Below are positions 1 through 36,016 of a stretch of DNA of 51,083 nucleotides, piece after piece. The stretch covers positions 42,542 through 93,624 of the forward strand of contig CAYQLK010000001.1 of the NCBI GenBank assembly GCA_964418515.1, in the 5' to 3' direction. Within the stretch, counting starts at the first letter, position 1. Every line of letters starts with the position of its first letter. The translations under genes were made by a program, and so were the position numbers. Below the pieces are notes generated by a model. That model was not told the origin of the DNA. It worked only from the letters and a program-made list of their open reading frames with translations, and did no database searches. The DNA is from an uncultured Gammaproteobacteria bacterium (lineage in GTDB: Bacteria; Patescibacteriota; Microgenomatia; CAYQLK01).

Positions 1-54
1 GCAAAAGATAGATTAATAAAAAATATTACAATATTTAGATCTTCATTAAAATGA
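1..54 (+). CDS. 3' end of an unidentified upstream CDS (partial, runs off window)
   Basis: Frame 1 is open from the window edge (AKDRLIKNITIFRSSLK*). Its TGA at 52-54 overlaps the next ATG (51-53) in the same ATGA arrangement used repeatedly in this gene array. Only 17 codons, so it could be chance. Confidence 0.3.
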   Translation, partial: AKDRLIKNITIFRSSLK

Positions 55-926
55 ACAACTCAAAAATTTCTGTATTGATAGTAACTTACAATAGTATGGA
101 TTACATATTAGACTGTCTAAAATCCGTCTATCAATCTAAACTAGAAGGTTTTAGCCTTGAAGTAATTATTTCAGACAATGCCTCAAAAGACGATACTGTT
201 AGTTTAATCACAAAAAATTACGGAAAATCCAAAATAATTACAAACAAAAATAATACTGGGTTTGCCGGCGGAATTAATATTGCAATTAAAAAGGCGTTAG
301 ACTCTAATTCAGACTATTTTTTTATATTAAACCCCGATACTCTAATAAAAAAAGATACTATTCTAAACTTATTCAAATTTAGGGGAGAAGCTGACATTTT
401 ATCGCCAAAAATATATTTTACTGATAATCCAAAAGTTATCTGGTACGCAGGAGGAAAGATAGATTGGAATAATTGTTATGGTACACACATCGGTGTCGAC
501 GAGGAGGATTGTGGACAGTACGACCAAATTAAAGAAATTGATTATTCAACAGGTTGCGGAGAATTAGTAAGTAGAAAAGTTTTTGAAAAGGTTGGCTTTA
601 TGAACGAAAAATACTTTTTATATTTAGAAGATTTAGATTTTAGTTTAAGAGCCAAAAAAAATGGGTTCAAAATTAAATATATTCCTACTTCGAGCATGTT
701 TCATCATAACGCCAAATCATCAAGTGTAGGTTCTCCAATTCAAGATTACTATATTACGCGCAATCGAATGTATTTTGCCCTTATTTACGCACCAATTAGA
801 ACAAAAATTGCTGTTTTTCGGCAATCCTTTGGATTTTTAATTAACGGCCGTAAGGCACAAAAAATTGCTGTTCAAGATTTTTTAATGTTTAAAATGTATA
901 CAGGGAGTATATTTAAAAAAATATGA
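51..926 (+). CDS. Family-2 (GT-A fold) glycosyltransferase, WbbL/rhamnosyltransferase-like subtype
   Basis: 291-aa ORF with motifs VLIVTYNS, ISDNASKDDT, NTGFAGGINIAIK, ILNPDT and LEDLDFSLRAKKNGFKI. Same motif order as ORFs 5046, 16322 and 21496. Confidence 0.85.
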   Translation: MNNSKISVLIVTYNSMDYILDCLKSVYQSKLEGFSLEVIISDNASKDDTVSLITKNYGKSKIITNKNNTGFAGGINIAIKKALDSNSDYFFILNPDTLIKKDTILNLFKFRGEADILSPKIYFTDNPKVIWYAGGKIDWNNCYGTHIGVDEEDCGQYDQIKEIDYSTGCGELVSRKVFEKVGFMNEKYFLYLEDLDFSLRAKKNGFKIKYIPTSSMFHHNAKSSSVGSPIQDYYITRNRMYFALIYAPIRTKIAVFRQSFGFLINGRKAQKIAVQDFLMFKMYTGSIFKKI

Positions 927-1732
927 TAACTGCAGTAATTATTGCCAAAAATGAAGAAGAATTAATAGGTAATGCTATTAAAAGCCTTAAATTACTAACT
1001 AATGATATTGTCCTTTTGGACGATTCATCTACCGATTCTACGGCAAAAATCTCCAGTAGTCTTGGCGCTCAAGTAATCAAATTAGAGAAAAATTTAAATT
1101 TTTCACAAAAGCGAAATACAATACTAAATAAGCTAAAGACAGAATGGATATTTTATTTAGACGCGGATGAGAGGATTACAAAAAAACTTGCAGAGGAAAT
1201 AAAATCAGTTATTGCCTCGAAAAATCCAAGTTCTGCTTATTGGGTTAATAGAAAAAATTATATATTAGGCAAAGAGTTGGATAGCAAAACTTGGTATCCA
1301 GATGCCCAACCCAGACTGTTCAGGCTTAAAAAATTTAAAGGCTGGACAGGGCATATACATGAAGGCGTTAATTTTGAAGGAAAAAAGTCGAATCTAAAAT
1401 CAAATATCGTACACCTTACGCACAGAAGCGTGGCGGCAATGATAGAAAAAACAAATTCTTGGTCAGAAATCGAAGCCGATAATCTCTTTACACTTAACCA
1501 TCCTAAGATTACGTCGGTAAGGCTATTTAAGTTGTTCTTTACACAATTTTTTAAAAAATATATCAGTGACGAAAACTATAAAAACGGCATAAGGGGCGTA
1601 ATTGAGTCGTTTATGCAAGTGTTTAGTGTGATGATTACTTATTTTAAACTCTGGGAGCGACAACAGACCCCAAGTATTAAAGAACAATACAATTTAATTG
1701 AAGATCAGTTGGAAAAAGAAGCAAGCAAATGA
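923..1732 (+). CDS. Family-2 glycosyltransferase, second subtype (paralog of 9207..10025)
   Basis: 269-aa ORF with AVIIAKNEEELI, LLDDSSTDSTAKI, YLDADERIT and YPDAQPRLFRLKK motifs. Alignable over full length with ORF 9207. ATGA overlap with the upstream gene. Confidence 0.8.
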   Translation: MITAVIIAKNEEELIGNAIKSLKLLTNDIVLLDDSSTDSTAKISSSLGAQVIKLEKNLNFSQKRNTILNKLKTEWIFYLDADERITKKLAEEIKSVIASKNPSSAYWVNRKNYILGKELDSKTWYPDAQPRLFRLKKFKGWTGHIHEGVNFEGKKSNLKSNIVHLTHRSVAAMIEKTNSWSEIEADNLFTLNHPKITSVRLFKLFFTQFFKKYISDENYKNGIRGVIESFMQVFSVMITYFKLWERQQTPSIKEQYNLIEDQLEKEASK

Positions 1733-2772
1733 GAGTAGCAGTATATGATCCATATCTTGACACCTTGGGTGGTGGGGAAAAATATATATTAGCAATCTGT
1801 AGTAATTATCTAAAAAATGGACACTCAGTTGATATTCTATTTGATAAGGATTTAAATTTATTAGATATTAAAAAAAGGTTTAATCTACCACTAGAAGGAC
1901 TTAGTTTGGTCAAAATAAATCTCAACTCTCTTGGTTTGTTGGCTAAGTATCAATTTTTAAGAAAATACGACCACTATCTTCACTTGTCTGATGGATCTAT
2001 TCCAATACCGATGGCTTCAAAAAATTATATTCATTTTCAAGTGCCATTCAGCAAGATAAAACCAACAATAATAGATAAAATTAAGCTTAAATTGTTTGAC
2101 TCCGTAATTGTTAACTCTAAGTTCACAAAAAAAGTAATTGACAACACCTATTCAGTGAATTCTGAAGTTCTCTATCCTCCAGTTACTCTTTTTAAAAAAT
2201 CAAACAAAAAAAATATTATTATTTCTATCGGTCGATTTGATGCCGTTCTCAACAGCAAAAGACAGGATATATTAATTGAGGCATTCAAAATTCTTAGCAA
2301 AAAAAATAGGCATTTTAGTTTGTATTTAGTCGGAGGAATTTCAGATAAAGACTTGATACATTTGGATCAACTTAAATCCAAAGCAAGAGGTTATAAAATA
2401 AAGTTTTTTCCTAATTTAAGTTTTACTGAACTATCGAAGCTTATTTCAGAGTCAAAAGTTTATTGGCACGCAACAGGATTTGAGTGTAAAGAGTCTGATC
2501 CAGAATATTTTGAACATTTTGGTATATCCATACTAGAAGCTTCATCGTCTGGATCAGTACCTATTGTCTATGATGGTGGTGGGCCAAAAGAGTATATTTT
2601 AGAAAAAAATAATGGATTATTTTTTACTACGGCTGAGATGTTAGCAGTAAAAACTTTAGAATTAATTAGTAACCCTAAACTATTTTTACAAATGTCGAAA
2701 TCCGCACAAACTACTGCGAAAAAATATTCGGTATCAGAATTTAATAAAAATGTTGAAAAAATATTTTCTTAA
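1729..2772 (+). CDS. Family-4 (GT-B fold) glycosyltransferase
   Basis: 347-aa ORF. N-terminus MRVAVYDPYLDTLGGGEKY and C-terminal EX7E-type motif FEHFGISILEASSSGSVPIV. ATGA overlap upstream. Confidence 0.85.
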   Translation: MRVAVYDPYLDTLGGGEKYILAICSNYLKNGHSVDILFDKDLNLLDIKKRFNLPLEGLSLVKINLNSLGLLAKYQFLRKYDHYLHLSDGSIPIPMASKNYIHFQVPFSKIKPTIIDKIKLKLFDSVIVNSKFTKKVIDNTYSVNSEVLYPPVTLFKKSNKKNIIISIGRFDAVLNSKRQDILIEAFKILSKKNRHFSLYLVGGISDKDLIHLDQLKSKARGYKIKFFPNLSFTELSKLISESKVYWHATGFECKESDPEYFEHFGISILEASSSGSVPIVYDGGGPKEYILEKNNGLFFTTAEMLAVKTLELISNPKLFLQMSKSAQTTAKKYSVSEFNKNVEKIFS

Positions 2773-5053
2773 AATATTTTCGGTATTTATTTTTTTATCT
2801 ACCCTAATTATTTTGTGGCCAAAAAAACTTTTCCCTGGTGATAACTTGGTCGGACTATACCATCCTTTTAGAGACTTATTTTTAAATATTTACCCTGCTG
2901 GATATCCGTTCAAAAATGCTCTAATTACTGACCCGTTTTTGCAAATATTTCCATGGAAGTATCTAACTGTCGAGGCAATCAAAAATTTTAGCCTTCCACT
3001 CTGGAATCCTTATTCTTTTTCTGGTTATCCACTACTGGCAAATTTTCAGTCCGGCGTTTTTTTTCCGCTTAATATAATGCTTTTATCTTCAGGGTTAGAC
3101 TCGTGGCATTTATTTATTTTTATTCAGATTCCAATCACTTTTTTTTCAATGTTTCTTTTTCTTAGAAAACTTTCAGTTTCAAAAATTAGTGCTATCTTTT
3201 CAAGTGTTTGCTATGCCTTGTCAGGCTTTTCAATCGGATGGTTAGAATGGGGAAATATTGTCTTTATTTTTGCTTTTTTACCACTAGCTCTGTATTTCGT
3301 CTTATGCTTAGAACAAAGTTTTAGCCGAAAAAATATATTTTTATTTTACGCTAGTCTAATATTAATTCCAATATCAGGACATTTACAATTTACTTTTTAT
3401 TCATATCTAGTTATCGTATTTTTTGTCATAGTTATTTTTTTTAACAGTAGATTAATAAGCAGAGTACCTCAACTTTTAATTATTTTAATTTTATCGATAC
3501 TTACGGTTTCGATTCAAATTTTTCCAACTTTAGAATTAATAAAAAATTCATACAGGTCTGTTGACATATCCTATTTTGGTCAGGAGGATTGGTTTATTCC
3601 ATTGAAACATTTTATTTCTTTAATATCTCCAGACTTTTTTGGTTCTCCGGCAAGACAAAATTATTGGGGCGTATGGAATCATTTAGAATTTAATTTAAGC
3701 TTTTCTGTAGCTGCCTTATTTTTTTCACTATTAGGAATTAAAAAAAGAAAAATTAATATTTTCTTTTTAATTCTTTTAATTATCGCTTTAGTTTTTTCAA
3801 CCAACAATTTACTTTCTCAGATAATTTATGCAAATCAAATACCATTTATTTCTTCTGCTCAGCCTAGTCGTTTAATATTTATCGTGGTTTTTGCTTTATG
3901 CTGTCTAGCTGCTTTTGGTGTGGATGAAATGTATAAGCTTAAAATTACTAAATTTAAGTTGATTACAGTTTTTGTAATACTAACTTCAGTATTCGGACTT
4001 TTAATTTATTTAACATACGTTAATTTTAATATTTTTTTACCAGAAGATTTCCTCAAAAACCAAATAACAGCAAAAAGAAATCTTATTTTTCCTTTGTTTG
4101 TATTTTTACTGGTATTAATGTTTATATTTTTGTCACGATTAAAACTTATTCCTCTTAAATTATGTCTTATATGTCTTACAATTATTTCACTCGCCGAATT
4201 AACATTTTATGCAAATAAGTTTTTGCCCTATTCGACCAAGGCTTTGTTTTATCCCACAACCAAAATAACCGAATTTATAAATCACGACAATTCTGTTTTT
4301 CGTGTTTCAACTAATGATGATCGAATATTTCCACCCAACATTTCAGCCGTGTATGGAATTCAATCACCTGAAGGTTACGATCCGTTGTATCCCAAAACAT
4401 ATGCAGAATTTATTGGACTAATTGAATCTTCTGACACAGAACAAGTAAAGTTTAACCGTATTGTGAGACCTAAGAATATTAATTCAAACTTATACCCCTT
4501 AATTAACGCAAAATATATTTTGAGCTTTGATAAAGAATTAAATAATACAAAACCAATTTTTAGTGAAGGAATTACAAATGTATTTATAAATCAAAAATAT
4601 CTTGAACGAGCCTATCTGGTTCAGGATATTATTAATGCTAATTCTGATATTGAGAGCAAACAATTTTTGCTCGATAAAGATTTTGATCCCAAATCTCAAG
4701 CTGTTGTTATTGATGTTAATAGTAACAATGTTCTTCAAACTACTAATTCTGAAAGCATCGTCAATATAACTAGTTATAAGTCTAATATTATTAAAATAAA
4801 AACTAAAACGACTGGCAACTCATTTTTAGTTTTATTGGATAATTATTTTCCTGGCTGGAAAGCCAAAGTAAATAATGTCGACACGAAAATATATAGAACT
4901 AATCATACTTTTCGTGGCATTTACGTTCCATCGGGAGAAAATGAAATTATTTTTGAATACAATCCCAACTCATTTAGGGTTGGTGCACTAGTCTCTTTGA
5001 CTTCTATAATACTAATGTCTTTGTTTATTTTTAAAATTAAAAAAAATGAGTAA
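2750..5053 (+). CDS. YfhO-family polytopic membrane glycosyltransferase (GT-C type)
   Basis: 767-aa ORF with many hydrophobic helices over about the first 500 aa. A soluble C-terminal domain ends in LLDNYFPGWKAKVNNVDTKIYRTNHTFRGIYVPSGENEIIFEYNP followed by a final TM helix, which is characteristic of YfhO proteins. Confidence 0.8.
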   Translation: MLKKYFLKIFSVFIFLSTLIILWPKKLFPGDNLVGLYHPFRDLFLNIYPAGYPFKNALITDPFLQIFPWKYLTVEAIKNFSLPLWNPYSFSGYPLLANFQSGVFFPLNIMLLSSGLDSWHLFIFIQIPITFFSMFLFLRKLSVSKISAIFSSVCYALSGFSIGWLEWGNIVFIFAFLPLALYFVLCLEQSFSRKNIFLFYASLILIPISGHLQFTFYSYLVIVFFVIVIFFNSRLISRVPQLLIILILSILTVSIQIFPTLELIKNSYRSVDISYFGQEDWFIPLKHFISLISPDFFGSPARQNYWGVWNHLEFNLSFSVAALFFSLLGIKKRKINIFFLILLIIALVFSTNNLLSQIIYANQIPFISSAQPSRLIFIVVFALCCLAAFGVDEMYKLKITKFKLITVFVILTSVFGLLIYLTYVNFNIFLPEDFLKNQITAKRNLIFPLFVFLLVLMFIFLSRLKLIPLKLCLICLTIISLAELTFYANKFLPYSTKALFYPTTKITEFINHDNSVFRVSTNDDRIFPPNISAVYGIQSPEGYDPLYPKTYAEFIGLIESSDTEQVKFNRIVRPKNINSNLYPLINAKYILSFDKELNNTKPIFSEGITNVFINQKYLERAYLVQDIINANSDIESKQFLLDKDFDPKSQAVVIDVNSNNVLQTTNSESIVNITSYKSNIIKIKTKTTGNSFLVLLDNYFPGWKAKVNNVDTKIYRTNHTFRGIYVPSGENEIIFEYNPNSFRVGALVSLTSIILMSLFIFKIKKNE

Positions 5054-5969
5054 AAAAATTACAGTCGTTATACCTAACTACAACGGGTCGAAATTGCTTA
5101 GACGTAATCTTCCAGATATAATCAAAAATTTTCCAGACTCACAAATAATAATATCTGACGATAACTCAAGCGATGATAGTTTAAATTTTTTGGCTAATAA
5201 TTTTCCCAATATTGAAATAATAGCAAATAAAACGAACAAAGGCTTTTCATCAAATGTTAATAGTGGTGTAAAAAAAGCAAAAACTCCAATCGTTGTTTTG
5301 CTCAACACAGATGTAGCTGTAAACAAAGATTACACAAGGCAAATTGAAAATTATTTTGAAAACGAGAATCTTTTTGGTATTGGTTTTCAGGATCGAAGTT
5401 TTGAAGACAAAAACATTGTATTAAGGGGTAGGGGAGTCGGTATCTTTAAAAAAGGTCTACTTAATCACGCAAAAGGAAATAATGAATTTGGTAGGACGCT
5501 TTGGATTTCAGGAGGTAGTTGCGCAGTTAGTTTAGAAAAATTTAAAAAGCTTGGTGGATTTAATGAAATATATAATCCATTTTATTGGGAGGACATTGAT
5601 TTATCTTACCGGGCAATTAAGTCTGGATGGGAAATATTATTTGCACCTGAAATTGTGGTTGATCATTTTCATGAAATTGGTTCAATTAGAAAACACCATT
5701 CCGCCGACAGGATTACAAAAATAGCTGCTAGAAATATGTTAATTTTTTCTGCTAAAAATATTACTGACAAAAAAATATTGTTAAGTTTTTATATTACTTT
5801 GATTATGTTATCAATTAAATCACTCATTAAAATGGACGCAAACATGTTAAGTTCGATTATGTGGTTTTTATTAAAATATCCAAAAATTATCACAAATCGA
5901 AATAAGGAAACAAAATACTACAAACTATCAGACAAAGAAATCATCAATAATTTTGGCAATGTTGGGTAA
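5046..5969 (+). CDS. Family-2 glycosyltransferase, WbbL-like subtype
   Basis: 307-aa ORF with VVIPNYNG, ISDDNSSDDS, NKGFSSNVNSG, LLNTDV and WEDIDLSYRAIKSGWEI motifs, plus a hydrophobic C-terminal tail. Its start overlaps the yfhO-like stop by 8 nt. Confidence 0.85.
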   Translation: MSKKITVVIPNYNGSKLLRRNLPDIIKNFPDSQIIISDDNSSDDSLNFLANNFPNIEIIANKTNKGFSSNVNSGVKKAKTPIVVLLNTDVAVNKDYTRQIENYFENENLFGIGFQDRSFEDKNIVLRGRGVGIFKKGLLNHAKGNNEFGRTLWISGGSCAVSLEKFKKLGGFNEIYNPFYWEDIDLSYRAIKSGWEILFAPEIVVDHFHEIGSIRKHHSADRITKIAARNMLIFSAKNITDKKILLSFYITLIMLSIKSLIKMDANMLSSIMWFLLKYPKIITNRNKETKYYKLSDKEIINNFGNVG

Positions 5970-7602
5970 ATTTAAAAAACATATCTTAATCCTAAGTGTT
6001 TTATTTATTGCTATTTTTGTACGAACTTACGCCTTTGAAAAATCAGCAACTTCGTTAAATTGGGACGAGGTATCAATAACTTACAACGCTTGGTCTCTTC
6101 TGGAAACAGGTAAGGATGAGTACGGAGATACGCTACCACTGGTGTTTAGATCGTTTGATGACTACAAATCGCCGTTATATATTTATTTAACAGTGCCATT
6201 CGTTGCAATATTTGGACCAGTTGGTAATGTAGTGAGATTGCCTAGTTTGATTTTGGGCTCATTTAGTGTTTTGGGGATATATTTGTTAACTTTTCAATTG
6301 TTCAAAAAAAGAAAGATTGCAATATTTACTTCTTTATTTTTGGCACTTCTTCCGTGGTCCATTCATTTCTCAAGGGTTGCTTTCGAGGGAAATATTTTAG
6401 TATTTTTTATTATCTTTGGAATATATTTTTTCTATAAATTTGTTAATGGAAAACATAACAATATTAATATATCGATTATTTTCTTTGCTATTGGGATGTA
6501 TGCGTACCATTCTGCAAAATTAATTATTCCTCTTATTGTTGCAATTCTAATAATTCTTTACTGGAAACAAATTTTTAGCTTAACAAGAAGACAAATTATT
6601 TTTTCCGTTTTATTAAGCTTAATCCTAATAGCTCCTCTCACATATTCGATATTTTTTTCTGGAGCACAAAAGCGTTTTGAAGATACGAGTATTTTTTCTA
6701 AAAAAAATATCGACCAGGTTGATCCAGCCAGAAAACTATTTGACATTGAAAATGGCAATAATTTACCGTCAAAATTATTTCACAATAGGAGTTTTTATCA
6801 GTTAGATCTCTTATTTTCTAACTACTTATCACATTTTTCACCAGAATTTTTAATTTATACACAAGATAATCCAAGACATCACGCAACAAGAGTTGGTTTA
6901 GTTTTGTTGCCACAATTGGCATTTATTATTTTAGGTACATGGGTATTAGTAAAAAAGAAAAAATTTAACAAGGAAAAAATTCTTGTATTTTCACTTCTGC
7001 TTACTTCTCCAATGGCGTCAGCACTGACATTTGAGGCACCACATTCGATTAGGGCATCAGTTTTAATGATTCCTCTGTCAATATTAGGGGGTTTAGGAAT
7101 TAGTTGGCTGAGTAAGAAAAACAATCGACTACAAAGGATAATACTTGGATTATTAATTATTTTTACTTTGGTTAACTTTTATTTTTATTATCATCAATAT
7201 ATTAGCCACTACAAGTTTGAAACATCACAAGACTGGCAGTTTGGAAGGAAAGAGGCAGTAGAATATAGTAATGAGGTTGAGTATCAGTACGATGAAATAT
7301 GGATATCAAATAAATTAGAACAGTCTTACATTTATTGGCTACTATATTTGAAAGTGAATCCAGAAATATATCTAAGCCATGGTGGAACAAAAGCAGGGTA
7401 TGAAGGTTTTGAGGAAAACACTTTGGGGAAATATCGATTTATAAACATTAACCCCAAAACCATTACAAATGATAAAAAAATATTATTAATTGGAGAGAAA
7501 GACGAATTTTTAGCAAAGCCGATAAAACAAATATTATCCCCTAACAAGGATACGGCTATCGATATAACAGACTCATCTCAATATGAAAAAATTAATAAAT
7601 AA
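5959..7602 (+). CDS. ArnT/PMT-like (GT39/GT83-type) polyprenyl-phosphate-sugar-dependent membrane glycosyltransferase (GT-C)
   Basis: About 547-aa polytopic ORF. First-loop acidic motif SLNWDEVSITYNAWSL followed by DYKSPLYIYLT and a C-terminal soluble domain. ATG at 5959 is preferred; the ORF track starts at an in-frame TTG at 5953. Confidence 0.75.
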   Translation: MLGKFKKHILILSVLFIAIFVRTYAFEKSATSLNWDEVSITYNAWSLLETGKDEYGDTLPLVFRSFDDYKSPLYIYLTVPFVAIFGPVGNVVRLPSLILGSFSVLGIYLLTFQLFKKRKIAIFTSLFLALLPWSIHFSRVAFEGNILVFFIIFGIYFFYKFVNGKHNNINISIIFFAIGMYAYHSAKLIIPLIVAILIILYWKQIFSLTRRQIIFSVLLSLILIAPLTYSIFFSGAQKRFEDTSIFSKKNIDQVDPARKLFDIENGNNLPSKLFHNRSFYQLDLLFSNYLSHFSPEFLIYTQDNPRHHATRVGLVLLPQLAFIILGTWVLVKKKKFNKEKILVFSLLLTSPMASALTFEAPHSIRASVLMIPLSILGGLGISWLSKKNNRLQRIILGLLIIFTLVNFYFYYHQYISHYKFETSQDWQFGRKEAVEYSNEVEYQYDEIWISNKLEQSYIYWLLYLKVNPEIYLSHGGTKAGYEGFEENTLGKYRFININPKTITNDKKILLIGEKDEFLAKPIKQILSPNKDTAIDITDSSQYEKINK

Positions 7603-9223
7603 TAATAAATACCTAATCTTAATATTATTTTTTGGATTTTTTTTAAGAATCTTTAATATTTTTAATTCCCCTCCATCCCTATATTGGGATGAAGTGTCAA
7701 TTGGTTACAATAGTTATTCAATTGCTGAAACACTAAAAGACGAACATGGCAACTTGTTGCCAGTCCAAGCATTCACTGCATATGGTGACTATAAAGCACC
7801 GCTATATATCTATCTAACTGCTCCAATTGTTAAATTATTTGGCCTGAACTATCTAACAGTTCGATTAACATCAATAATTTCAGGGACTATATTAATATTA
7901 TTACTTTATCTTTTAGCCAAAGAGATTACTCCAAAAAACAAAAAATATCCGCTTATTGCTTCACTCTTTATTTGTATTTCACCTTGGAGTATACAATTAT
8001 CCAGAGCAGCATTTGAAGCTAACCTTGCGACAACTTTAGCTACAGCTGGTACGTTATTTTTTGTTAAATCAAGAGTTAAACCAAAGTTAATATTTTTGTC
8101 AGTAATATTTTTTATTGGGTCAATGTATGCATTTAATGGTACCCGGTATTTTCTCCCAATTTGGATATTTTTTCTTGGATTATGGCAATTATTTAACAAA
8201 AGAATTTCTATAAATTACGCAAAATATCTAATTGTTTCAGTATTACTAGGCATAATATTAATTATTCCATTAATTTCATTTGGATTAACTAGCTCAGGAC
8301 AGTTAAGGTTTAATGAAGTTAATATCTTTTCTGATCCTGAGCCAGTCAGCAAATCAAATTCACTACAACTTCAAAATAATAATTCGATAATTTCAAAAAT
8401 AATTTATAATCGCCGAGTATTTCATGCGCAAAATTATTTTGATCACTATTTGGATCATTTCTCATTTCAATATTTATTTTTAACAGGTGATATAAATCCC
8501 CGCTTCTCTTCACAAAAAATGGGGCAACTATATTTGGTTGAATTAATACTTATTTTTATAGGATTAATATATCTATTCAAAAACAAAAGGAAGTTTTTTT
8601 ATTTTATTTTGTTTTGGATTTTGCTCTCTCCAATTGCTGCAAGCGTAGCCAGAGAAACGCCCCACGCCTTGAGAACACTTCACATGTTGCCAGCATTAAT
8701 TCTTACCAGCTCGTATGGAATGATATATCTATTTGAGCAGGTAAAAAAGGCCAAGCTAAAAAAAATCTTATCAAGCACCTTTCTGTTTCTTATATTATTT
8801 CAATTTTTAATATTTTATTCAGATTATATTTATTTTTATCCTAAAAAATTTGCAGATAGTTGGCAGGATGGTTATAGGCAAATGTCTGAAAGTTTAAAAA
8901 AAGTTAAAGATAAATATCCAAAGATTTTGGTAACTGACGAATATGGTCGTGCTTACGCCAATCTATTATATTATTGGCGGTATAGTCCCGAAGATTACAT
9001 CAAAACTCGAAAGGCTAATTCAGAACCATCTGGTCTATGGAATGTATATGGATTTTCGAATATTTCATTTAAACCAACATTGTCATGTGCGGATTCGAAT
9101 AGTGCAGATTTGTTGGTTGGCACACCTAGCGAGTTCAGGGGAATCAATAATCGTGAGGTCATTTTTGATAGCTTCAATCGACCGAAGTTTGTTATGATTA
9201 ATTCCAATGACTGTAAAAAATAA
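7583..9223 (+). CDS. ArnT/PMT-like GT-C membrane glycosyltransferase, tandem paralog of 5959..7602
   Basis: 546-aa polytopic ORF. SLYWDEVSIGYNSYSI and DYKAPLYIYLT align residue-for-residue with the preceding gene. 20-nt overlap with it. Confidence 0.75.
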   Translation: MKKLINNNKYLILILFFGFFLRIFNIFNSPPSLYWDEVSIGYNSYSIAETLKDEHGNLLPVQAFTAYGDYKAPLYIYLTAPIVKLFGLNYLTVRLTSIISGTILILLLYLLAKEITPKNKKYPLIASLFICISPWSIQLSRAAFEANLATTLATAGTLFFVKSRVKPKLIFLSVIFFIGSMYAFNGTRYFLPIWIFFLGLWQLFNKRISINYAKYLIVSVLLGIILIIPLISFGLTSSGQLRFNEVNIFSDPEPVSKSNSLQLQNNNSIISKIIYNRRVFHAQNYFDHYLDHFSFQYLFLTGDINPRFSSQKMGQLYLVELILIFIGLIYLFKNKRKFFYFILFWILLSPIAASVARETPHALRTLHMLPALILTSSYGMIYLFEQVKKAKLKKILSSTFLFLILFQFLIFYSDYIYFYPKKFADSWQDGYRQMSESLKKVKDKYPKILVTDEYGRAYANLLYYWRYSPEDYIKTRKANSEPSGLWNVYGFSNISFKPTLSCADSNSADLLVGTPSEFRGINNREVIFDSFNRPKFVMINSNDCKK

Positions 9224-10025
9224 AGCTATTAAGTTGTCGATTGCGATGGCAACGTACAACGAAGAAAAAAATATTGAACACTCGCTTAATTCTGTAAAGG
9301 GTTGGGCAGATGAAATTGTAATTTTTGACGGATCATCCTCAGATAACACAGTCAAATTAGCCAAAAAATTAGGAGCCAAAGTTTTTGTTGTGGATAATCC
9401 ACCACACTTTCATGTTAATAAGCAAAAAGCAATCGACATCTGTCAAGGAGATTGGATTTTTCAGTTAGATGCTGACGAAGAGTTAACCTCAGACTTAAAA
9501 GAAGAAATTTCAAAAATTATTTTAAATGGCAGTAAGTATGCTGGATATTACATTCCCAGAAAAAATTATTTTTTAGCTCACTGGATGAAAAAAACTGCAA
9601 ACTATCCGGACCCAGTCATTAGATTGTTTAAAAAAGGGAAAGGCAGGGTTCCAGCCAAAGCCACACACGAACAGATTGAAATTGATGGTGAAATAGGTTG
9701 GGTAAAAAACGACATGCTGCATTATGGGGATGTAAGTTTTACTAGATATCTAATTCGTTCAAATAGATACAGTAGTATGGACGCAAGATATCTTAAGGCA
9801 GCTGAGACAAAAATAACCTTTGGTTTTACTGTTAAGTATTTATTTTTTTATCCTATAAAAACATTTTTTTTACTATATTTTCGCCATCAGGGATTTCGGG
9901 ATGGTATGGCAGGTTTTGCGTTTTCGCTTTATTCTGGATTCCATTATATTTCTACGTACTTAAAATATTATGAGTCAAAAAACCAAAGTATTGATCGACC
10001 AGACCCGCTTGATTACTGGGCATAA
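9207..10025 (+). CDS. Family-2 glycosyltransferase, second subtype (paralog of 923..1732)
   Basis: 272-aa ORF with IAMATYNEEKNI, IFDGSSSDNTVKL, QLDADEELT and YPDPVIRLFKKGKG motifs. Collinear with ORF 923. Confidence 0.8.
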   Translation: MTVKNKAIKLSIAMATYNEEKNIEHSLNSVKGWADEIVIFDGSSSDNTVKLAKKLGAKVFVVDNPPHFHVNKQKAIDICQGDWIFQLDADEELTSDLKEEISKIILNGSKYAGYYIPRKNYFLAHWMKKTANYPDPVIRLFKKGKGRVPAKATHEQIEIDGEIGWVKNDMLHYGDVSFTRYLIRSNRYSSMDARYLKAAETKITFGFTVKYLFFYPIKTFFLLYFRHQGFRDGMAGFAFSLYSGFHYISTYLKYYESKNQSIDRPDPLDYWA

Positions 10026-15711: not shown

Positions 15712-15715
15712 ATAT

Positions 15716-16318
15716 ATGATTGGAATAACTGACAAAAACGGACAATCTCTAAGTAGTTCAGAAATAATTACTAAAATTATAATCAGGATAAATAGTTATT
15801 TGTTAGATTTTTGGTTAATGATTCTCAATTTTATTAGTGTAGTTCCATCACATAGCATTAGAAATCTATTCTATAGAGCCTCAGGAATAAAAATTGGCCC
15901 AAAGTCCTACATTCATTATGGAGCCAGGTTCTATATGCCTATGAATATTAAAATTGGAGACGGAACAATTATTGGTGATCATGCCTTTATTGACGGAAGA
16001 GCACCAGTAAAAATTGGAAACAATGTAGATATTGCTTCAGAGGTTAGAATCTATAATTCCGAACACGATATAGAGAGCAATGATTTTATAGCAACAAATG
16101 CACCAGTAAACATTGAAGATTATGTTTTTATTGGTCCAAGAGTAACAATATTGCCGGGAGTAACTATCGGCAAAGGTGCAGTTATTGCTGCTGGGTCAGT
16201 GGTAGTTAAGGATGTTGACGCATCAACCTTGGTTGGTGGTGTGCCAGCAAAATACATAAAAGATAGAAACTTGAAAGAATACAAATACAGATTGGGAAGA
16301 CCAAAATTATTTCAGTAA
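15716..16318 (+). CDS. Hexapeptide-repeat (left-handed beta-helix) O-acetyltransferase, WcaF/WbbJ-like
   Basis: 200-aa ORF with repeated [LIV]-G-x4 hexapeptides ([49 protein letters not shown]) and a terminal GGVPAKYIK. Confidence 0.85.
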
Positions 16319-16321
16319 ACA

Positions 16322-17227: not shown

Positions 17228-18810
17228 AATCCGTGAAAGCACTACTAAATTTTGTCGACAATCACCTTTTAGAATTTATAGCTATTTTCCTAATAGTTTT
17301 TATTCCTGTTTACCCAAAATTTCCTTTATTTGATATTCTTCCAGGTTACATTGTTCGAGCTCGTTTAGAAGATATTTTGATATTTCTGGCATTTATAACT
17401 TTTGGTATTTATTTAATCCGCAGAAAGGTCAGCTTAAAAAACAATCCACTTACATGGCCAATAATAATTTATGCGGTTGTTGGCTTGTTATCCTGTCTGT
17501 CAGCAATATTTATTACTCAGTCAGTTCCAGCTGAGGCCAATCATATTGGCAAAATGTTCTTGCACTACTTTAGACGGTTAGAGTATTTTTCAATGTTTTT
17601 TATTGTTTTTGCGTCAATCAAATCTTTAGAACAAGTTAAAAAATATATTTACATAGCATTTATTGTTTTACTCATTATTTCTGTTTACGGTTTTGCACAA
17701 AAATATATGTATTTCCCCGCCTTTTCTACAATGAATAGAGAGTTTTCGAAAGGTTGGGCACTTTATTTGACCGAACATGCAAGAGTACTTTCAACATTTG
17801 GAGGCCATTATGACTTGGCTGCCTATTTAATGATGTCATTAACGCTACTATTAAGCTTTATTTTAACGATTAAGAAAAAGCTTATTCAGCTCGGATTAAT
17901 AGTGTTGTATATATTTAGTTTCTGGATTTTAATTCTTACCGCTTCGAGAATTTCGTTTCTAGCGTACTTGGGCGCAATTTCCTTAGCAGTCGCGGGGGTT
18001 TATTATTGGGACAGAAAGAAAATCAAGGCTGTGGTTAGCTTTGTCGTTGTCATGATGTTTTCGCTAGTAATTATGTTGTCGTTTGGTGATTTGTCTTCAA
18101 GATTTAGCGGATTAATAAAAAATGACCAACTCACAGCTTTAATTGAAAAAGCCCAAAATCCGTTTGCAAAAAAACCAACTGAAAAAGCCGCGTTTTTGGA
18201 AAACAATCCAGATAGTCCGTTAGCTGCATCAGATCAACAACCAGTTTCAACAAAACCGAGTGATGTTACTAGCGACCAGCCAATTTACGTCATTGCTACC
18301 AATGCTGCTGGAGAATCAACCTTGACGGCTGTACCGAGGCAATATTCTGATAATGCCCTTAAATATGATCTATCTACAGCAATTAGACTAGATAAGTTAT
18401 GGCCGCAAGCAATCAGCGGTTTTAAAGCAAACCCAATCTTTGGTTCTGGATACTCGACATTAACCAAATCTTCAAAATACGAATTTACTGAGGCAGAATC
18501 AACAGATAATGATTATTTGCGATCTTTAGGCGAAACTGGTCTTGCGGGTTTCATTTCATTCTTTGGAATAATCGCCTATGTTATATACGCGAGCTTCAGA
18601 TCAATTAGAAAAATTTCTGACCCAACAATTGCTGGAATAGTAATTGGAATCAGTTGTGCAGTTATTGGCCTGCTAGCTAACGCAATATATATTGATATTT
18701 TTGAAGCATCTAAAGTCGCTTTTACTCTTTGGGGTTTGGTTGCAATTCTTATGGCGGCAATCAAATTTATTGACGCGAAGCCATCAAAAACTAGTAGTAA
18801 GAAAAAATAA
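17221..18810 (+). CDS. Wzy_C-domain membrane protein (O-antigen ligase / polymerase / O-oligosaccharyltransferase-like)
   Basis: 529-aa polytopic ORF. LTASRISFLAYLG helix, then a hydrophilic loop of about 150 aa (approx 18088-18540) ending in NPIFGSGYS...DNDYLRSLGETGLAGF, then terminal TM helices. There is no ATG; the start is TTG 17221 (overlapping the upstream stop) or GTG 17233. Confidence 0.65.
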   Translation: MVKSVKALLNFVDNHLLEFIAIFLIVFIPVYPKFPLFDILPGYIVRARLEDILIFLAFITFGIYLIRRKVSLKNNPLTWPIIIYAVVGLLSCLSAIFITQSVPAEANHIGKMFLHYFRRLEYFSMFFIVFASIKSLEQVKKYIYIAFIVLLIISVYGFAQKYMYFPAFSTMNREFSKGWALYLTEHARVLSTFGGHYDLAAYLMMSLTLLLSFILTIKKKLIQLGLIVLYIFSFWILILTASRISFLAYLGAISLAVAGVYYWDRKKIKAVVSFVVVMMFSLVIMLSFGDLSSRFSGLIKNDQLTALIEKAQNPFAKKPTEKAAFLENNPDSPLAASDQQPVSTKPSDVTSDQPIYVIATNAAGESTLTAVPRQYSDNALKYDLSTAIRLDKLWPQAISGFKANPIFGSGYSTLTKSSKYEFTEAESTDNDYLRSLGETGLAGFISFFGIIAYVIYASFRSIRKISDPTIAGIVIGISCAVIGLLANAIYIDIFEASKVAFTLWGLVAILMAAIKFIDAKPSKTSSKKK

Positions 18811-18826
18811 TTAATTTATTGACAAT

Positions 18827-21493: not shown

Positions 21494-21495
21494 TT

Positions 21496-22407
21496 ATGGT
21501 TAAACCTACAGTCGATATAGTCATTGTTAATTACAACGCCGGTATTTATCTTAAAAACTGCATTTTTAGTCTAAAGGCATGCCTAAAATCAAATTTTAAA
21601 CTAAATTGTATTGTTATCGACAACGCCTCGAGTGATGACAGTATTTCACAAATTAAACATCTTAAGCTACCTTGGCTCACTATCATTAATCATCCAGAAA
21701 ATGTCGGGTTCGCCGCAGGATGTAATATTGGAATCAAAAAATCCAAAGGAAGTTATGTATTACTTCTTAACCCTGATACCAAAGTTTCAAAAGACACAAT
21801 TGTTAAAATGGTCGACTTTCTTAGCATTCACCCAAAAGCTGGGATTGTAACTCCGAAACTAGTTTTATCAAATGGTCAGATTGATCCAGCCTCTCACCGA
21901 GGATTTCCGACACCTTGGGCATCATTTAGTTATTTTATTGGTCTTGAAAAGTTTTTTCCTTCTAATCCAAAATTTAGTCAATATCATATGAGGTACAAAT
22001 CAATGGATAAGGTTCACGAAATAGATTCTCCATCAGGGGCGTTTATGCTAATTAAAAAAGAGGTAATCAATAAAATCGGGTTATTAGATGAAGATTTTTT
22101 CATGTACGCCGAAGACATTGACTTTAGCTACAGGGCAAAAAAAGCAGGCTTTCAGATTTTTTATAATCCATCTTCAATTGTTTTGCACACAAAAGGCATT
22201 TCCTCTGGTATTAAAAAACATTCAGAAAAAAAATCTAAAGCAAGCGTCGAAACCAGACTTCGGACCTCTAAACATTTTTATGAAACAATGAAAATTTTCT
22301 ATCAAAAACATTACAGTCACAAATATCCCAAATTACTTGAAATATTAATTTTTCTTTTTATTGATATTAAAAAAAATATTAAAATATTTCAGTTGAAGTA
22401 TTTATAA
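21496..22407 (+). CDS. Family-2 glycosyltransferase, WbbL-like subtype
   Basis: 303-aa ORF with IVIVNYNA, VIDNASSDDS, NVGFAAGCNIG, LLNPDT and AEDIDFSYRAKKAGFQI motifs. Confidence 0.85.
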   Translation: MVKPTVDIVIVNYNAGIYLKNCIFSLKACLKSNFKLNCIVIDNASSDDSISQIKHLKLPWLTIINHPENVGFAAGCNIGIKKSKGSYVLLLNPDTKVSKDTIVKMVDFLSIHPKAGIVTPKLVLSNGQIDPASHRGFPTPWASFSYFIGLEKFFPSNPKFSQYHMRYKSMDKVHEIDSPSGAFMLIKKEVINKIGLLDEDFFMYAEDIDFSYRAKKAGFQIFYNPSSIVLHTKGISSGIKKHSEKKSKASVETRLRTSKHFYETMKIFYQKHYSHKYPKLLEILIFLFIDIKKNIKIFQLKYL

Positions 22408-22409
22408 TA

Positions 22410-25661: not shown

Positions 25662-25664
25662 ATA

Positions 25665-26303
25665 ATGTTTTACGATTTCGCAAAACGCACAATCGATATA
25701 GTCGGTTCACTGGTTGGAATGTCAATTTTGTGTTTAATTTTTCCTGTAATTGCAATCGCAATCAAAAGATCAAGCCCAGGACCTGTGTTTGCCGATGTCC
25801 CTAAAAGAAGCGGTAAAGACGGTAAGTCATTCAAAATGTATAAGTTCCGCTCAATGATAAAAGATGCTCATCTTTTGTTGCAAAGTGACCCAAAATTCAA
25901 GAAACTTTATGAGGAATACAAGAAAAATTCCTACAAACTCTCACACGATCCCAGGGTCACTCCTTTGGGGCATTTTATACGCAAAACAAGCATTGATGAG
26001 CTACCACAATTTATTAATGTTCTAAAAGGAGAAATGAGTCTTGTTGGGCCAAGAGCGTATTATCCAGACGAGTTAATTAATCAGCAAAAAGCCTTTCCAG
26101 AAACCAAAAAATACGTCAAAACACTCTTAACCGCCAAACCAGGCTTAACAGGTCCTTGGCAAGTTTCTGGTAGGAGTGATATTTCGTTCGAAAAAAGGGT
26201 CAAATTGGATGCGGATTATGCAAAAAAGCGCTCAATCTTGTATGATTTAAAGATTATAATCCTCACAGTTCCTGCACTGCTTTCTCAAAAAGGTGCTGTC
26301 TAA
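25665..26303 (+). CDS. Small monotopic initiating phosphoglycosyl transferase (bacterial sugar transferase family, PglC/WbaP C-terminal-domain type)
   Basis: 212-aa ORF with [12 protein letters not shown] plus a re-entrant helix, [56 protein letters not shown] and LDADYA. Confidence 0.9.
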
Positions 26304-26339
26304 TAATTTTCTTAGTTTTAGTTAGATTATTCACAAAAT

Positions 26340-28229
26340 ATGCTTAAATTTTCAACGAACTACCAATCTCACAATAGCCATGTTTATCGCAATAAACAAA
26401 AAAAGCGGTCATTAAAGAAAATTATTATTATCCTTGGGATTTTTGTAATTTTTGGCCTTTATATTGGTATTCCAGCTTTTGCCATCGGATCTAGTCTCAA
26501 AAATGCCAAAAACAATCTAAGCGCTTCAGTTGCGTCGCTAAGATCTGGTAATTTGCCAGAAACAAAATCGAAACTAGAGTCCGCTAAGGGGGATTTACAA
26601 AAAGCTCAAGCAGCCTCCCTTGTTTACAAACCATTAACCTTTATTCCTCTAATTGGATCATATCCTTCGGATCTTGAGCACGCCTTGTCAGCCGGTGTCC
26701 AGGGTGTTGAGGCTGGATTAATCATTACTAAATCAATTGAACCCTACGCAGACCTTCTGGGTCTAGGTAGTGGTGACTTTTTGGGTGGAACTGCCCAGGA
26801 TAGAATGCAAAAAGCCATCCAAACCTTATCAAAAATTACGCCAGAATTGGATAAGGTAAACGAAAAATTATCCAAGGCTAATAAGGAAATGGCACAAATT
26901 AACGCCAACAGATATCCAGATTTTATTCCTGGCAAACCCAGAACAAATATTAACCTCGCCAAAAGTTATCTCGTTCAAGGTGAAAAAGTCTTGACCGAAA
27001 CCAAACCACTTTTAGAAGTTTTACCAAGTATTATGGGTGATGATCGGGCCAAAAAATACATGGTTCTTTTTCTTAACGACAAAGAGCTAAGGCCTGGTGG
27101 TGGATTTATCACAGCTTATGCTTACTTAAACATCGACAAGGCTTTAGTTAAAGCAGAAGGTTCTGATAACATTTACGATCTTGATGACACCATTACTGAT
27201 AAACCTTCTGCACCTGAAGCAATTATCAAATATCTACCTTTAGTAGATTCATTTAACCTTCGCGATTCGAACCTTTCACCTGATCTTCCAACTTCACTTA
27301 CGGCTTTTGAAGATTTATACAAACTATCACCCCAATATCAGCCAGTCGACGGGTACTTCACGGTTAATACTAGAGCACTTTCTGATGTTTTAAGTGTCCT
27401 AGGTCCAATCGAGATAGAGGGTGTTAAATACACCAACGATATTGTGCCTGCCTGTGATTGCCCGCAAATAGTTTATTCTCTGCTTGAAAGTTCAGGACAA
27501 CCAAGAGGTTTTATTGTTGAGGAGAGAAAAGCCTTAATTGGTGTTTTGATGAACGCAATCATGGATAAGAGTTTAAGCGCAAACAAAGACACACTTCCCA
27601 AGTTAATAGAGCTTGGTCTCAAACTTCTTGCACAAAAAGATGTAATGCTTAATTTTAAAGATGAAAAAACCCAAGTTGCTTCGGAAAAACTAGGTTATGC
27701 CGGCAAAATTAAACAATCTGAAAGTGACTATTTATCAGTCGTTGACAGCAACTTTGCTGGTGCCAAAAGCAATCTTTATATTCAACAAACGGTTACTCAA
27801 GACATCAGAACAGATGGTGACAAAATTATTAAAAAGGTGACTGTTAATCTCAAAAACCCTCGAGCCGCTGATAATTGTTCGCTAGAAAGAACCGCAGGTT
27901 TATGTCTAAACGGAATATACAGGGATTGGATTAGAGTATTTGTTCCTATTGGCTCAAAACTTATTAGTTCAACGGGTTCTGAAACGGATGTTGTTACTTA
28001 TGATGATTTAGGAAAAACTGTTTTTGAGGGATTTTTTACGTTACGTCCTTTAGGAACTTCGCAAATCGAAGTCGAATATGAATTACCATTCAAAGCAAGT
28101 GGTGATTACAAAATTCTTATTCAAAAACAATCAGGCAAGGGTATAGTTCCTCATGTAATTAATATTGACGGCAAGAAGAAAGAATCGTTTGACCTAAGTG
28201 GTGATCAGGAGATAAAGTTAGATATATAA
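26340..28229 (+). CDS. N-terminally anchored extracytoplasmic protein, DUF4012-like
   Basis: 629-aa ORF. One N-terminal TM helix (IIIILGIFVIFGLYIGIPAFAIG), a helical region, then LFLNDKELRPGGGFITAYAYL, which matches the E-L-R-x-x-G-G core I associate with DUF4012. Function unknown. Confidence 0.6.
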   Translation: MLKFSTNYQSHNSHVYRNKQKKRSLKKIIIILGIFVIFGLYIGIPAFAIGSSLKNAKNNLSASVASLRSGNLPETKSKLESAKGDLQKAQAASLVYKPLTFIPLIGSYPSDLEHALSAGVQGVEAGLIITKSIEPYADLLGLGSGDFLGGTAQDRMQKAIQTLSKITPELDKVNEKLSKANKEMAQINANRYPDFIPGKPRTNINLAKSYLVQGEKVLTETKPLLEVLPSIMGDDRAKKYMVLFLNDKELRPGGGFITAYAYLNIDKALVKAEGSDNIYDLDDTITDKPSAPEAIIKYLPLVDSFNLRDSNLSPDLPTSLTAFEDLYKLSPQYQPVDGYFTVNTRALSDVLSVLGPIEIEGVKYTNDIVPACDCPQIVYSLLESSGQPRGFIVEERKALIGVLMNAIMDKSLSANKDTLPKLIELGLKLLAQKDVMLNFKDEKTQVASEKLGYAGKIKQSESDYLSVVDSNFAGAKSNLYIQQTVTQDIRTDGDKIIKKVTVNLKNPRAADNCSLERTAGLCLNGIYRDWIRVFVPIGSKLISSTGSETDVVTYDDLGKTVFEGFFTLRPLGTSQIEVEYELPFKASGDYKILIQKQSGKGIVPHVINIDGKKKESFDLSGDQEIKLDI

Positions 28230-28925: not shown

Positions 28926-28935
28926 TATTACGCAG

Positions 28936-34794: not shown

Positions 34795-34826
34795 GTCCTA
34801 GCCGATTTAGATTAGAATATCGAATA

Positions 34827-36005: not shown

Positions 36006-36016
36006 GTCTTACAAAA

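Follow-up and report, generated by a model that had tools for sequence, protein, structure and literature searches.

A run of 24 glycan-assembly genes in a Curtissbacteria bacterium is probably the downstream part of a larger envelope-glycan locus with standard connecting components

Positions 51 to 28229 of the 51,083-nucleotide stretch of DNA analyzed here (NCBI contig CAYQLK010000001.1, positions 42,542 to 93,624; hereafter, the window) hold 24 consecutive, co-directional genes, all on the + strand in the list of open reading frames (ORFs). They encode six GT2, seven GT4, and six GT-C-fold glycosyltransferases (GTs), a Wzy_C-domain protein, an acetyltransferase, ManC, a small phosphoglycosyl transferase (PGT), and a DUF4012 protein. 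These genes are probably the downstream two-thirds of a complete Curtissbacteria envelope-glycan locus of ∼36 genes that follows the known logic of a two-compartment pathway. A first-pass annotation of the window had already read the array as PGT-primed assembly in the cytoplasm followed by elaboration by GT-C enzymes at the outer face, a reading that the families present support. It had also regarded the parts connecting the two compartments as "missing or novel." This second claim is refuted by a standard Wzx flippase, the gene for which overlaps the first GT2 gene of the array, and by two predicted synthases of the DPMS/GtrB/ArnC type encoded further upstream. With these standard parts encoded immediately to the left of the window, an unknown route for glycan intermediates across the membrane is no longer implied.

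The flippase gene is cut by the left edge of the window

A lookup with the first GT2 protein (GT2a) in public assemblies returned short contigs that were 99.7 to 99.95% identical to the window. One of these (L002) is 99.95% identical to window positions 1 to 2008 and extends 3.1 kb further left, with positions 1 to 400 of the window identical to its positions 3156 to 3555. On this contig, the wzx gene, which encodes a protein of 490 amino acids (aa), has its last base at window position 54 and shares 4 bases with the GT2a gene; the translation of window positions 1 to 54 corresponds to the last 17 residues of Wzx. The Wzx protein matched Polysacc_synt_3 (E value, 2.9e-48; 165 bits compared to a cutoff of 23), Polysacc_synt (1.8e-21), the NCBIfam MOP flippase model NF007773 (4.8e-28), and, weakly, MurJ (5e-7). 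Its relatives are found in metagenome-assembled genomes (MAGs) of Woesebacteria, Daviesbacteria, and other Microgenomates. The MOP-family flippase that a Wzx/Wzy pathway requires is present on contigs that are 99.5 to 99.95% identical to the window.

Among the genes located wholly within the window, no flippase, ABC-2 exporter, Wzz, GtrA, or GtrB/DPM1/ArnC-type synthase was detected in Pfam, NCBIfam, or PDB sequence searches. The earlier statement that the array contains no flippase and no polyprenyl-phosphate-sugar synthase holds for these genes but not for the locus; the lack is an artefact, because the window starts inside wzx and the synthase genes are further upstream.

Predicted polyprenyl-phosphate-sugar synthases upstream of the window

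The gene order to the left of the window was obtained from two contigs of the same population. Contig L048 (46.9 kb), which is 99.49% identical to window positions 1 to 10277, carries in order genes for a PMT_2 protein, a 242-aa GT2, an MptA_B_family protein, a second PMT_2 protein, a 544-aa PTPS_related paralogue, a PTPS_related protein, and Wzx. Contig L047, which is 99.66% identical to L048 where the two overlap, adds a 383-aa GT2 one gene further left. The upstream part contributes two synthases, five further GT-C-like proteins, and the flippase. The MptA_B_family assignment (PF26314) comes from precomputed Pfam hits, and the 544-aa PTPS_related paralogue is itself without a Pfam match above threshold.

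The 383-aa GT2 is fused to a GtrA_DPMS_TM domain (51.8 bits compared to a cutoff of 26.1). It matched the structure of the Pyrococcus furiosus DPMS (5mlz) with an E value of 2e-46 over residues 1 to 379, followed by Synechocystis GtrB (5ekp) and ArnC. The 242-aa GT2 also matched 5mlz in the PDB sequence search (E value, 1.5e-18), followed by GtrB and ArnC. Both genes are located 8 to 10 kb upstream of the window, and their products are predicted to be polyprenyl-phosphate-monosaccharide synthases of the DPMS/GtrB/ArnC type. No free-standing GtrA gene was seen; the predicted GtrA-family membrane component of a three-component system is present as a domain fused to the synthase. The GT2 proteins of the window itself were also considered as hidden GtrB/DPM1-type synthases and rejected, as their matches were to ordinary GT-A enzymes, GmaR, and SunS in searches of NCBIfam and, except for GT2a and GT2f, of PDB sequences, with DPMS found only at E values of 0.005 or 5e-4.

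The left end of the locus was taken from the closest sequenced species, in which contig CAYOLO010000002.1 has 95% nucleotide identity over window positions 1 to 10051. There, the cluster opens with genes for RmlA, an RmlD-like reductase, and Gmd, directly 5' of the DPMS-type gene. RmlA and Gmd exceeded their equivalog cutoffs (463 bits compared to 360.65 and 448 bits compared to 415, respectively), and the RmlD-like reductase was below its cutoff. To the left of rmlA are ftsE, ftsX, and genes for a PcsB-like peptidase, tsaE, tsaD, a CAP protein, and other housekeeping functions. The complete locus extends from rmlA to the DUF4012 gene (∼36 genes, ∼42 kb), and it is flanked by the housekeeping block starting with ftsEX on the left and by recO, glyQS, and the dcw cluster on the right.

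Gene content of the array

The array had been described as 24 consecutive + strand ORFs with tiny or negative spacers, which was confirmed. Spacers ranged from -108 to +36 nucleotides (nt) in the mechanical ORF list; with the starts chosen by gene callers, overlaps were mostly 4 to 25 nt and the largest spacer was 36 nt. The census of 19 GTs also stood when compared to Pfam family thresholds (PF00535, 23.3 bits; PF00534, 26.4; PMT_2, 26.1; PF02397, 27; PF04932, 31.7), with the exception that the protein encoded at positions 10964 to 12094 has no hit of its own and was placed through its homologues and its fold. The six GT2 proteins scored 65 to 73 bits with PF00535, the seven GT4-type proteins scored 65 to 116 bits with PF00534, and the four PMT_2 proteins in the window scored 31 to 60 bits. 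Pfam likewise upheld the Wzy_C, hexapeptide acetyltransferase, ManC, small PGT, and DUF4012 assignments. In a hydropathy scan, the polytopic proteins had 7 to 12 membrane segments and most GT2 and GT4 proteins had none. In the following list, TM stands for transmembrane segments.

1-54, +: 3' end of wzx, MOP flippase (17 codons and stop); remainder to the left of the window
51-926, +: GT2a, 291 aa, soluble; PF00535, 68.8 bits; best NCBIfam match a rhamnosyltransferase subfamily, below cutoff
923-1732, +: GT2b, 269 aa, soluble; PF00535, 65.1 bits; best PDB sequence matches GmaR and SunS
1729-2772, +: GT4a, GT4-type GT-B; PF00534, 75.9 bits
2750-5053, +: YfhO-family GT-C, 767 aa, ∼12 TM; PF09586, 85.4 bits
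5046-5969, +: GT2c, 307 aa, one C-terminal hydrophobic segment; PF00535, 72.9 bits; PDB matches chondroitin synthase and other ordinary GT-A enzymes
5959-7602, +: PMT2a, PMT_2 GT-C, ∼10 TM; PF13231, 43.9 bits, and PF02366, 27 bits; WDE motif after TM1
7583-9223, +: PMT2b, PMT_2 GT-C; PF13231, 32.7 bits; paralogue of PMT2a (34% identity); DE motif
9207-10025, +: GT2d, 272 aa, soluble; PF00535, 67.2 bits; GmaR and SunS closest in the PDB, with no better than an E value of 0.005 for DPMS
9970-10989, +: GT4b, GT4-type GT-B; PF00534, 77.1 bits
10964-12094, +: relative of PIG-V/Gpi18-like GT-C mannosyltransferases, 376 aa, ∼10 TM; by PF04188 in homologues and fold search
12091-13527, +: PMT2c, PMT_2 GT-C; PF13231, 31 bits; LDE motif
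13524-14618, +: GT4c, GT4-type GT-B; PF00534, 106.3 bits
14605-15711, +: GT4d, GT4-type GT-B; PF00534, 116.2 bits
15716-16318, +: hexapeptide-repeat O-acetyltransferase, WcaF-like; PF00132, 62.3 bits; NF007797 (WcaF), 106 bits, below cutoff
16322-17227, +: GT2e, 301 aa; PF00535, 69.8 bits; PDB matches ordinary GT-A enzymes
17221-18810, +: Wzy_C-domain polytopic protein, ∼10 TM; PF04932, 49.2 bits
18827-20254, +: PMT2d, PMT_2 GT-C; PF13231, 59.6 bits
20255-21493, +: GT4e, GT4-type GT-B; PF13692, 89.8 bits; TIGR03087 (stp1-like), 205 bits, below cutoff
21496-22407, +: GT2f; PF00535, 67.9 bits
22410-23513, +: GT4f, GT4-type GT-B; PF00534, 97 bits
23491-24561, +: GT4g, GT4-type GT-B; PF00534, 102.6 bits
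24558-25661, +: ManC, mannose-1-phosphate guanylyltransferase without a phosphomannose isomerase (PMI) domain; PF00483 and PF22640; TIGR01479
25665-26303, +: small monotopic PGT, priming, 212 aa; PF02397 (Bac_transf), 198.5 bits
26340-28229, +: DUF4012 protein; PF13196, 64.1 bits

Two of the PMT_2 genes have alternative starts, at 5953 or 5959 and at 11986 or 12091. Positions 5959 and 12091, the starts given in the first-pass annotation, match the gene calls on related contigs, the ATG at 12091 being the start called in the ortholog. For the Wzy_C gene, gene callers use 17233 rather than 17221. ManC matched TIGR01479 with 235.7 bits over positions 3 to 352 of the 467 positions of the model, and the small PGT aligned to the C-terminal catalytic domain of the NCBIfam models for WbaP/WcaJ. 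Specific functions for the GT4 enzymes were sought with NCBIfam and discarded, as no equivalog was reached by any of them.

GT-C enzymes

The whole locus encodes 11 GT-C-like proteins: six PMT_2 proteins, the YfhO-family protein, the PTPS_related protein and its 544-aa paralogue, the MptA_B_family protein, and the PIG-V-like protein. Upstream of the window, two PMT_2 proteins, PTPS_related, and MptA_B were recognized by Pfam; within it, YfhO and four PMT_2 proteins scored above the cutoffs. The DE motif that follows TM1 is kept in five of the six PMT_2 proteins. Judging from the families to which they belong, these transferases would have their active sites at the outer face of the membrane.

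The protein encoded at 10964 to 12094 has no Pfam match of its own (PF04188 was absent even at an E value of ≤1) and no PDB sequence match. Most of its homologues with 36 to 80% identity carry precomputed PF04188 hits, and some are named "Gpi18-like mannosyltransferase." Because the homologues match PF04188 and the protein itself does not, it is best described as a divergent relative of that family rather than a scored member. Its AlphaFold (AF2) model, built on 45 homologues, had a pLDDT of 93.1 and a pTM of 0.92, and the 33 best Foldseek matches in the PDB were all GT-C folds (ArnT, STT3/AglB/PglB, ALG6/9/12, EmbA/B/C, AftA/B, PimE, and Pmt1-2). These matches had probabilities from ∼1.0 to 0.57 and TM-scores to the query mostly of 0.4 to 0.5, and they were weak by E value (best, 4e-3). 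The model points to a GT-C fold for this protein and not to that of a transporter. A hidden flippase or Wzy was rejected for this protein on the basis of its homologues and the fold search. Residue D68 (FDG) is invariant in the 45 homologues and is located in the first outer loop, between TM1 (residues 16 to 39) and the next membrane helices, which suggests a catalytic role.

The GT-C-rich segment differs among close contigs. Contig L050 (JGI 3300007437), from a variant of the population, is 99.5% identical over window positions 1 to 3967 and only 98.2% identical over positions 4063 to 11828, and its YfhO protein has 735 aa instead of 767 aa, which points to local microdiversity or recombination inside this segment.

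The Wzy_C and DUF4012 proteins

The Wzy_C domain of the protein encoded at 17221 to 18810 was recognized with 49.2 bits, and neither a specific model nor a PDB sequence matched. PF04932 was its sole Pfam match at an E value of ≤0.01, and neither a PglL_A nor a Wzy_C_2 domain was found on it. The score does not fix the role of the protein, because WaaL ligases and PglL/PilO transferases belong to this family as well.

The AlphaFold model of the DUF4012 protein (pLDDT, 79) has an N-terminal TM helix leading into an ∼200-residue bundle of five long helices, and its C-terminal part consists of alpha/beta and beta-sandwich domains. Invariant cysteines include C372, C374, C513, and C522. As a test of an analogy to Wzz/PCP proteins, Foldseek was uninformative: it gave no PCP match, only a partial match of the beta domain to M1 aminopeptidases (TM-score, 0.14). 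In the literature searched, DUF4012 appears only as a family enriched in the candidate phyla radiation (CPR) and Gram-positive bacteria (PMC6744442) and in an exopolysaccharide (EPS) locus of Bifidobacterium longum, in which the gene pair for PGT and DUF4012 also occurs (PMC5412050).

Conservation of the locus

Synteny across relatives had been proposed as a check on the array, and the gene order proved to be conserved. One relative (L054) has the same genes in the same order between GT2b and GT2f, with protein identities of 46 to 89%. In a more distant one (L055), the order is Wzy_C - PMT_2 - GT4 - GT2 - GT4 and onward to ManC - PGT - DUF4012 - recO - unknown - glyQS - mraZ; its glycan proteins are 37 to 56% identical to those of the window, the same range as GlyRS (45%), MraW (52%), and FtsI (52%). 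Around Wzx, most of the ∼30 Microgenomates loci share all or a large part of a core order: PMT_2 - small GT2 - PMT_2 - PTPS_related (one to four copies) - Wzx - polytopic proteins/PMT_2 - GT2 - GT2 - GT4 - YfhO. With its conserved gene order and a divergence in the range of housekeeping genes, the array has the pattern of a vertically inherited core envelope function and not that of a strain-variable O-antigen or capsule island.

In genomes of Daviesbacteria, Woesebacteria, and their relatives, Wzx is followed by polytopic proteins of ∼1,000 to 1,170 aa (11 to 15 TM) and 620 to 690 aa (9 to 13 TM), which had no blastp match to any protein of the locus described here (loci L015, L018-L020, L023, L024, L026, L028, L029, L031, L035, L037, L038, L040, L042, and L043). 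Upstream of Wzx, relatives have up to four tandem copies of PTPS_related.

Organism and genomic setting

The window comes from a member of Candidatus Curtissbacteria (Microgenomates, Patescibacteria/CPR); an NCBI protein assigned to "Candidatus Curtissbacteria bacterium" has 100% identity to the DUF4012 protein. Many MAG records named "uncultured Gammaproteobacteria bacterium" (loci L007-L043), one of which is 95% identical to the window, are collinear with Woesebacteria/Daviesbacteria loci, and these names look like placeholder or wrong taxonomy.

All 43 substantial ORFs of the window are on the + strand, so that co-directionality is a property of the whole region and does not set the glycan cluster apart. 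On the minus strand, there are two short ORFs, both inside larger genes, and no tRNA genes or Rfam families were matched across the 51 kb. Downstream of position 28229 are recO, a gene for a 294-aa membrane protein, the glycyl-tRNA synthetase gene, the dcw cluster (mraZ to ftsZ), pyrG, and ileS. The 294-aa protein (28879 to 29763), located between recO and glyQS, is predicted to span the membrane once and was matched by neither Pfam nor NCBIfam; a 282-aa counterpart with 24% identity is in the same position on the distant Curtissbacteria contig (L055, 12508 to 13356). In the dcw block, at 34770 to 38107, the gene for a divergent MurB (NCBIfam, 102 bits compared to a cutoff of 259) is flanked by genes for short Mur ligases of 411 and 373 aa, in which only the middle and C-terminal Mur ligase domains were recognized.

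The G+C content is 29 to 33% across most glycan genes compared to 36 to 41% from ManC onward and in housekeeping genes. The low G+C content of the glycan genes (window positions 1 to 24000 compared to 24000 to 51083) coexists with conserved order and housekeeping-like divergence in relatives.

Proposed pathway and alternative explanations

From the observed gene content, family and fold assignments, upstream contiguity, and conservation, we infer a pathway, including its sugars, order of steps, lipid carrier, product, and acceptor and the role of the Wzy_C protein. ManC would supply GDP-mannose, Gmd and the RmlD-like reductase a GDP-6-deoxyhexose, and RmlA dTDP-glucose. The small monotopic PGT would load polyprenyl phosphate, and up to 13 soluble GT2 and GT4 enzymes, together with the WcaF-like O-acetyltransferase, would extend the lipid-linked glycan at the cytoplasmic face. 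Wzx/MOP would then flip the glycan, which the Wzy_C protein may polymerize or transfer to an acceptor. At the same time, polyprenyl-phosphate-mannose and perhaps a second polyprenyl-phosphate-hexose would be made by the two DPMS/GtrB-type GT2 proteins, and the fused GtrA-like four-helix domain is the candidate for moving these products to the outer leaflet. There, the 11 GT-C-like proteins may use lipid-linked monosaccharides to lengthen the glycan, to add branches to it, or to O-mannosylate proteins. Analogues are known in the three-component glycosylation logic of Gram-positive bacteria (PMC8035078, PMC5836110, and PMC11127046) and in the Ppm1-fed GT-C mannosyltransferases of actinobacteria (PMC3485146 and PMC2440535). 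The first-pass guess that the product contains mannose is favored by ManC in the window, by Gmd and a DPMS-type synthase upstream, and by the PMT_2, MptA_B, and PIG-V-like families, the characterized members of which use polyprenyl-phosphate-mannose.

Several observations weigh against a complete Wzx/Wzy-type pathway. Polymer length control and attachment are unaccounted for, because no Wzz/PCP protein was matched among the 24 genes of the cluster, 19 genes downstream, and 12 genes upstream (∼72 kb), and no LCP-type ligase or tyrosine kinase appeared in general Pfam scans, in which no search was aimed at either. The domain assignment of the Wzy_C protein fits a predicted polymerase, ligase, or O-oligosaccharyltransferase alike. 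An ordinary repeat unit would not require as many as 13 cytoplasmic GTs, so that more than one glycan, or a long nonrepeating oligosaccharide, may be made. The RmlA/Gmd block was seen only in a relative with 94 to 95% identity and not on a contig of the same population, and that the 36-gene array is an operon is suggested by gene overlaps only. The earlier observation that an ABC-2 exporter is lacking, like Wzz, was borne out in the ∼72 kb examined; no ABC-2 (Wzm/Wzt) or ABC_tran match occurred in the cluster, and the sole ABC pair nearby is FtsE/FtsX upstream of it.

It is unlikely that the locus serves general protein O-glycosylation, with PGT, GT2, GT4, and Wzx building and flipping an oligosaccharide that the Wzy_C protein transfers to surface proteins, such as pilins or S-layer proteins, in the manner of PglL/PilO, while PMT_2 enzymes O-mannosylate Ser/Thr-rich regions from polyprenyl-phosphate-mannose. 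GmaR is a flagellin O-GlcNAc transferase and SunS is a peptide S-glycosyltransferase, and the finding that GT2b (923 to 1732) and GT2d (9207 to 10025) are closest to these among solved structures provides a hint, but only a hint, of protein glycosylation. The Wzy_C family includes PglL/PilO, no Wzz was found, the PMT_2/PMT families include protein O-mannosyltransferases, and the best NCBIfam match of Wzx was an "O-glycosylation flippase," with 103 bits, far below the cutoff of 720. Furthermore, a streptococcal GtrB-type synthase and a GT-C enzyme O-glycosylate membrane proteins (PMC11092751), and glycosylation has been predicted for the pilins of CPR bacteria (bioRxiv 10.1101/2024.11.25.624915). 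However, the Wzy_C protein has neither PglL_A nor Wzy_C_2, all matches to specific models were far below their cutoffs, and the other known occurrence of the PGT-DUF4012 pair is in a locus for a polysaccharide. The 11 GT-C-like proteins and 13 cytoplasmic GTs are also far more than O-glycosylation loci are known to encode. A lipomannan like that of Corynebacteriales, in which GT4 enzymes mannosylate a lipid anchor at the inner face, MptA/B-, PIG-V-, and PMT_2-type GT-C enzymes build the mannan outside, and Wzx, Wzy_C, and PGT make a separate polymer from the same operon, seems quite unlikely. It would explain the MptA_B_family protein (PF26314) within the locus, the DPMS/Ppm1-type synthase together with ManC, the several GT-C families with characterized users of polyprenyl-phosphate-mannose, and the weak similarity, below cutoff, of GT4 proteins to the glycolipid-anchor GTs IagA/BgsA and Dgs, and the actinobacterial mechanism is known (PMC3485146 and PMC2440535). 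Yet no PimA/PimB equivalog was reached, no Pim model was among the NCBIfam matches of the GT4 proteins at E values of ≤1e-10, and there was no sign of phosphatidylinositol (PI) or another lipid anchor. CPR bacteria are mostly without de novo lipid synthesis, and throughout the class, GT-C genes are closely intermixed with GT2/GT4 genes and wzx, which speaks for a single integrated pathway.

It is highly improbable that the pathway dispenses with standard connectors and depends on a new kind of flippase and an unknown way of making polyprenyl-phosphate-sugars. Positions 51 to 28229 do give no MOP, ABC-2, Wzz, GtrA, or GtrB/DPM1/ArnC match, but the window starts inside wzx, contigs with 99.5 to 99.7% identity encode a GtrA-like domain and two synthases of the DPMS/GtrB type 8 to 10 kb upstream, and the sole polytopic protein of the window without a Pfam match has the fold of a GT-C enzyme rather than of a transporter. 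A single integrated two-compartment locus remains the probable explanation for the array, with an envelope polysaccharide that is decorated outside the membrane as the preferred product. A more specific proposal, which we regard as tentative and rather doubtful, is that the product is a mannose-rich envelope glycopolymer or lipoglycan that is specific to CPR bacteria and probably essential. Its assembly at the outer face would require an unprecedented set of 11 GT-C-like proteins from a single operon. The product would fill the role of the teichoic acids or lipomannan of other monoderm bacteria and might attach the episymbiont to its host, and the CPR-enriched DUF4012 protein would be a new component for assembly or length control in place of Wzz.

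The locus is unusual in having 11 GT-C-like proteins in one array, in the depth at which its gene order is conserved, and in its location in a reduced CPR genome beside division and cell wall genes. To our knowledge, 11 GT-C enzymes in one array exceed any characterized locus. The first-pass annotation had known of no characterized cluster of such composition, and literature searches that combined CPR, Microgenomates, or Patescibacteria with glycosylation enzymes or O-antigen yielded none, nor any description of the locus itself. With ∼42 kb devoted to one surface-glycan system, roughly 4 to 6% of a genome estimated, rather than measured, at 0.7 to 1 Mb would be taken up. Little is understood of the envelopes of CPR bacteria and of the part that they play in episymbiosis; the locus is a candidate for the source of the major envelope glycan of Microgenomates, and it gives context for the uncharacterized DUF4012 and PTPS_related families.

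Comparison with known systems

The Wzx/Wzy heteropolysaccharide loci of Gram-positive bacteria, such as the EPS/capsular polysaccharide locus of B. longum 105-A (PMC5412050), share with the array a Bac_transf PGT directly followed by DUF4012, a run of GT2 and GT4 genes, an acetyltransferase, a MOP flippase, a Wzy_C-type polytopic protein, and nucleotide-sugar genes within the locus. In contrast to such loci, no Wzz/PCP was found here and nothing resembling a tyrosine kinase appeared in general Pfam scans, 11 GT-C-like proteins and two predicted polyprenyl-phosphate-sugar synthases are embedded, and the genes are conserved one for one across deep divergence rather than being strain variable.

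In three-component systems, which consist of a GtrB/CsbB-type GT2, a GtrA flippase, and a GT-C enzyme such as GtrV/YfhO (PMC8035078, PMC5836110, and PMC11127046), there are similar synthases and a GtrA domain, and YfhO- or PMT_2-type GT-C enzymes are likewise encoded in the locus of the glycan that they would decorate. The GtrA-like part is a separate small protein in those systems, whereas here, as in archaeal DPMS, it belongs to the same polypeptide as the synthase, and two synthases would serve 11 GT-C-like proteins here compared to a ratio of roughly one to one there.

The proposed pathway also resembles actinobacterial lipomannan/lipoarabinomannan synthesis (Ppm1, PimE, MptA, MptB, and MptC; PMC3485146 and PMC2440535) in having many GT-C enzymes that would be fed by a polyprenyl-phosphate-mannose synthase and in having an MptA_B-family member, with the GDP-mannose supply encoded in the locus in the present case. 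The actinobacterial genes are dispersed, whereas here they form one operon-like array with a PGT/Wzx/Wzy_C route; there is no sign here of a PI-mannoside anchor, and the CPR lineage is unrelated. With PglL/PilO O-glycosylation and PMT O-mannosylation, the array shares a candidate Wzy_C transferase, Wzx, a PGT, and the DE motif of PMT_2 proteins in the first outer loop; it differs from these systems in having no PglL-specific domain and far more genes than O-glycosylation loci are known to have.

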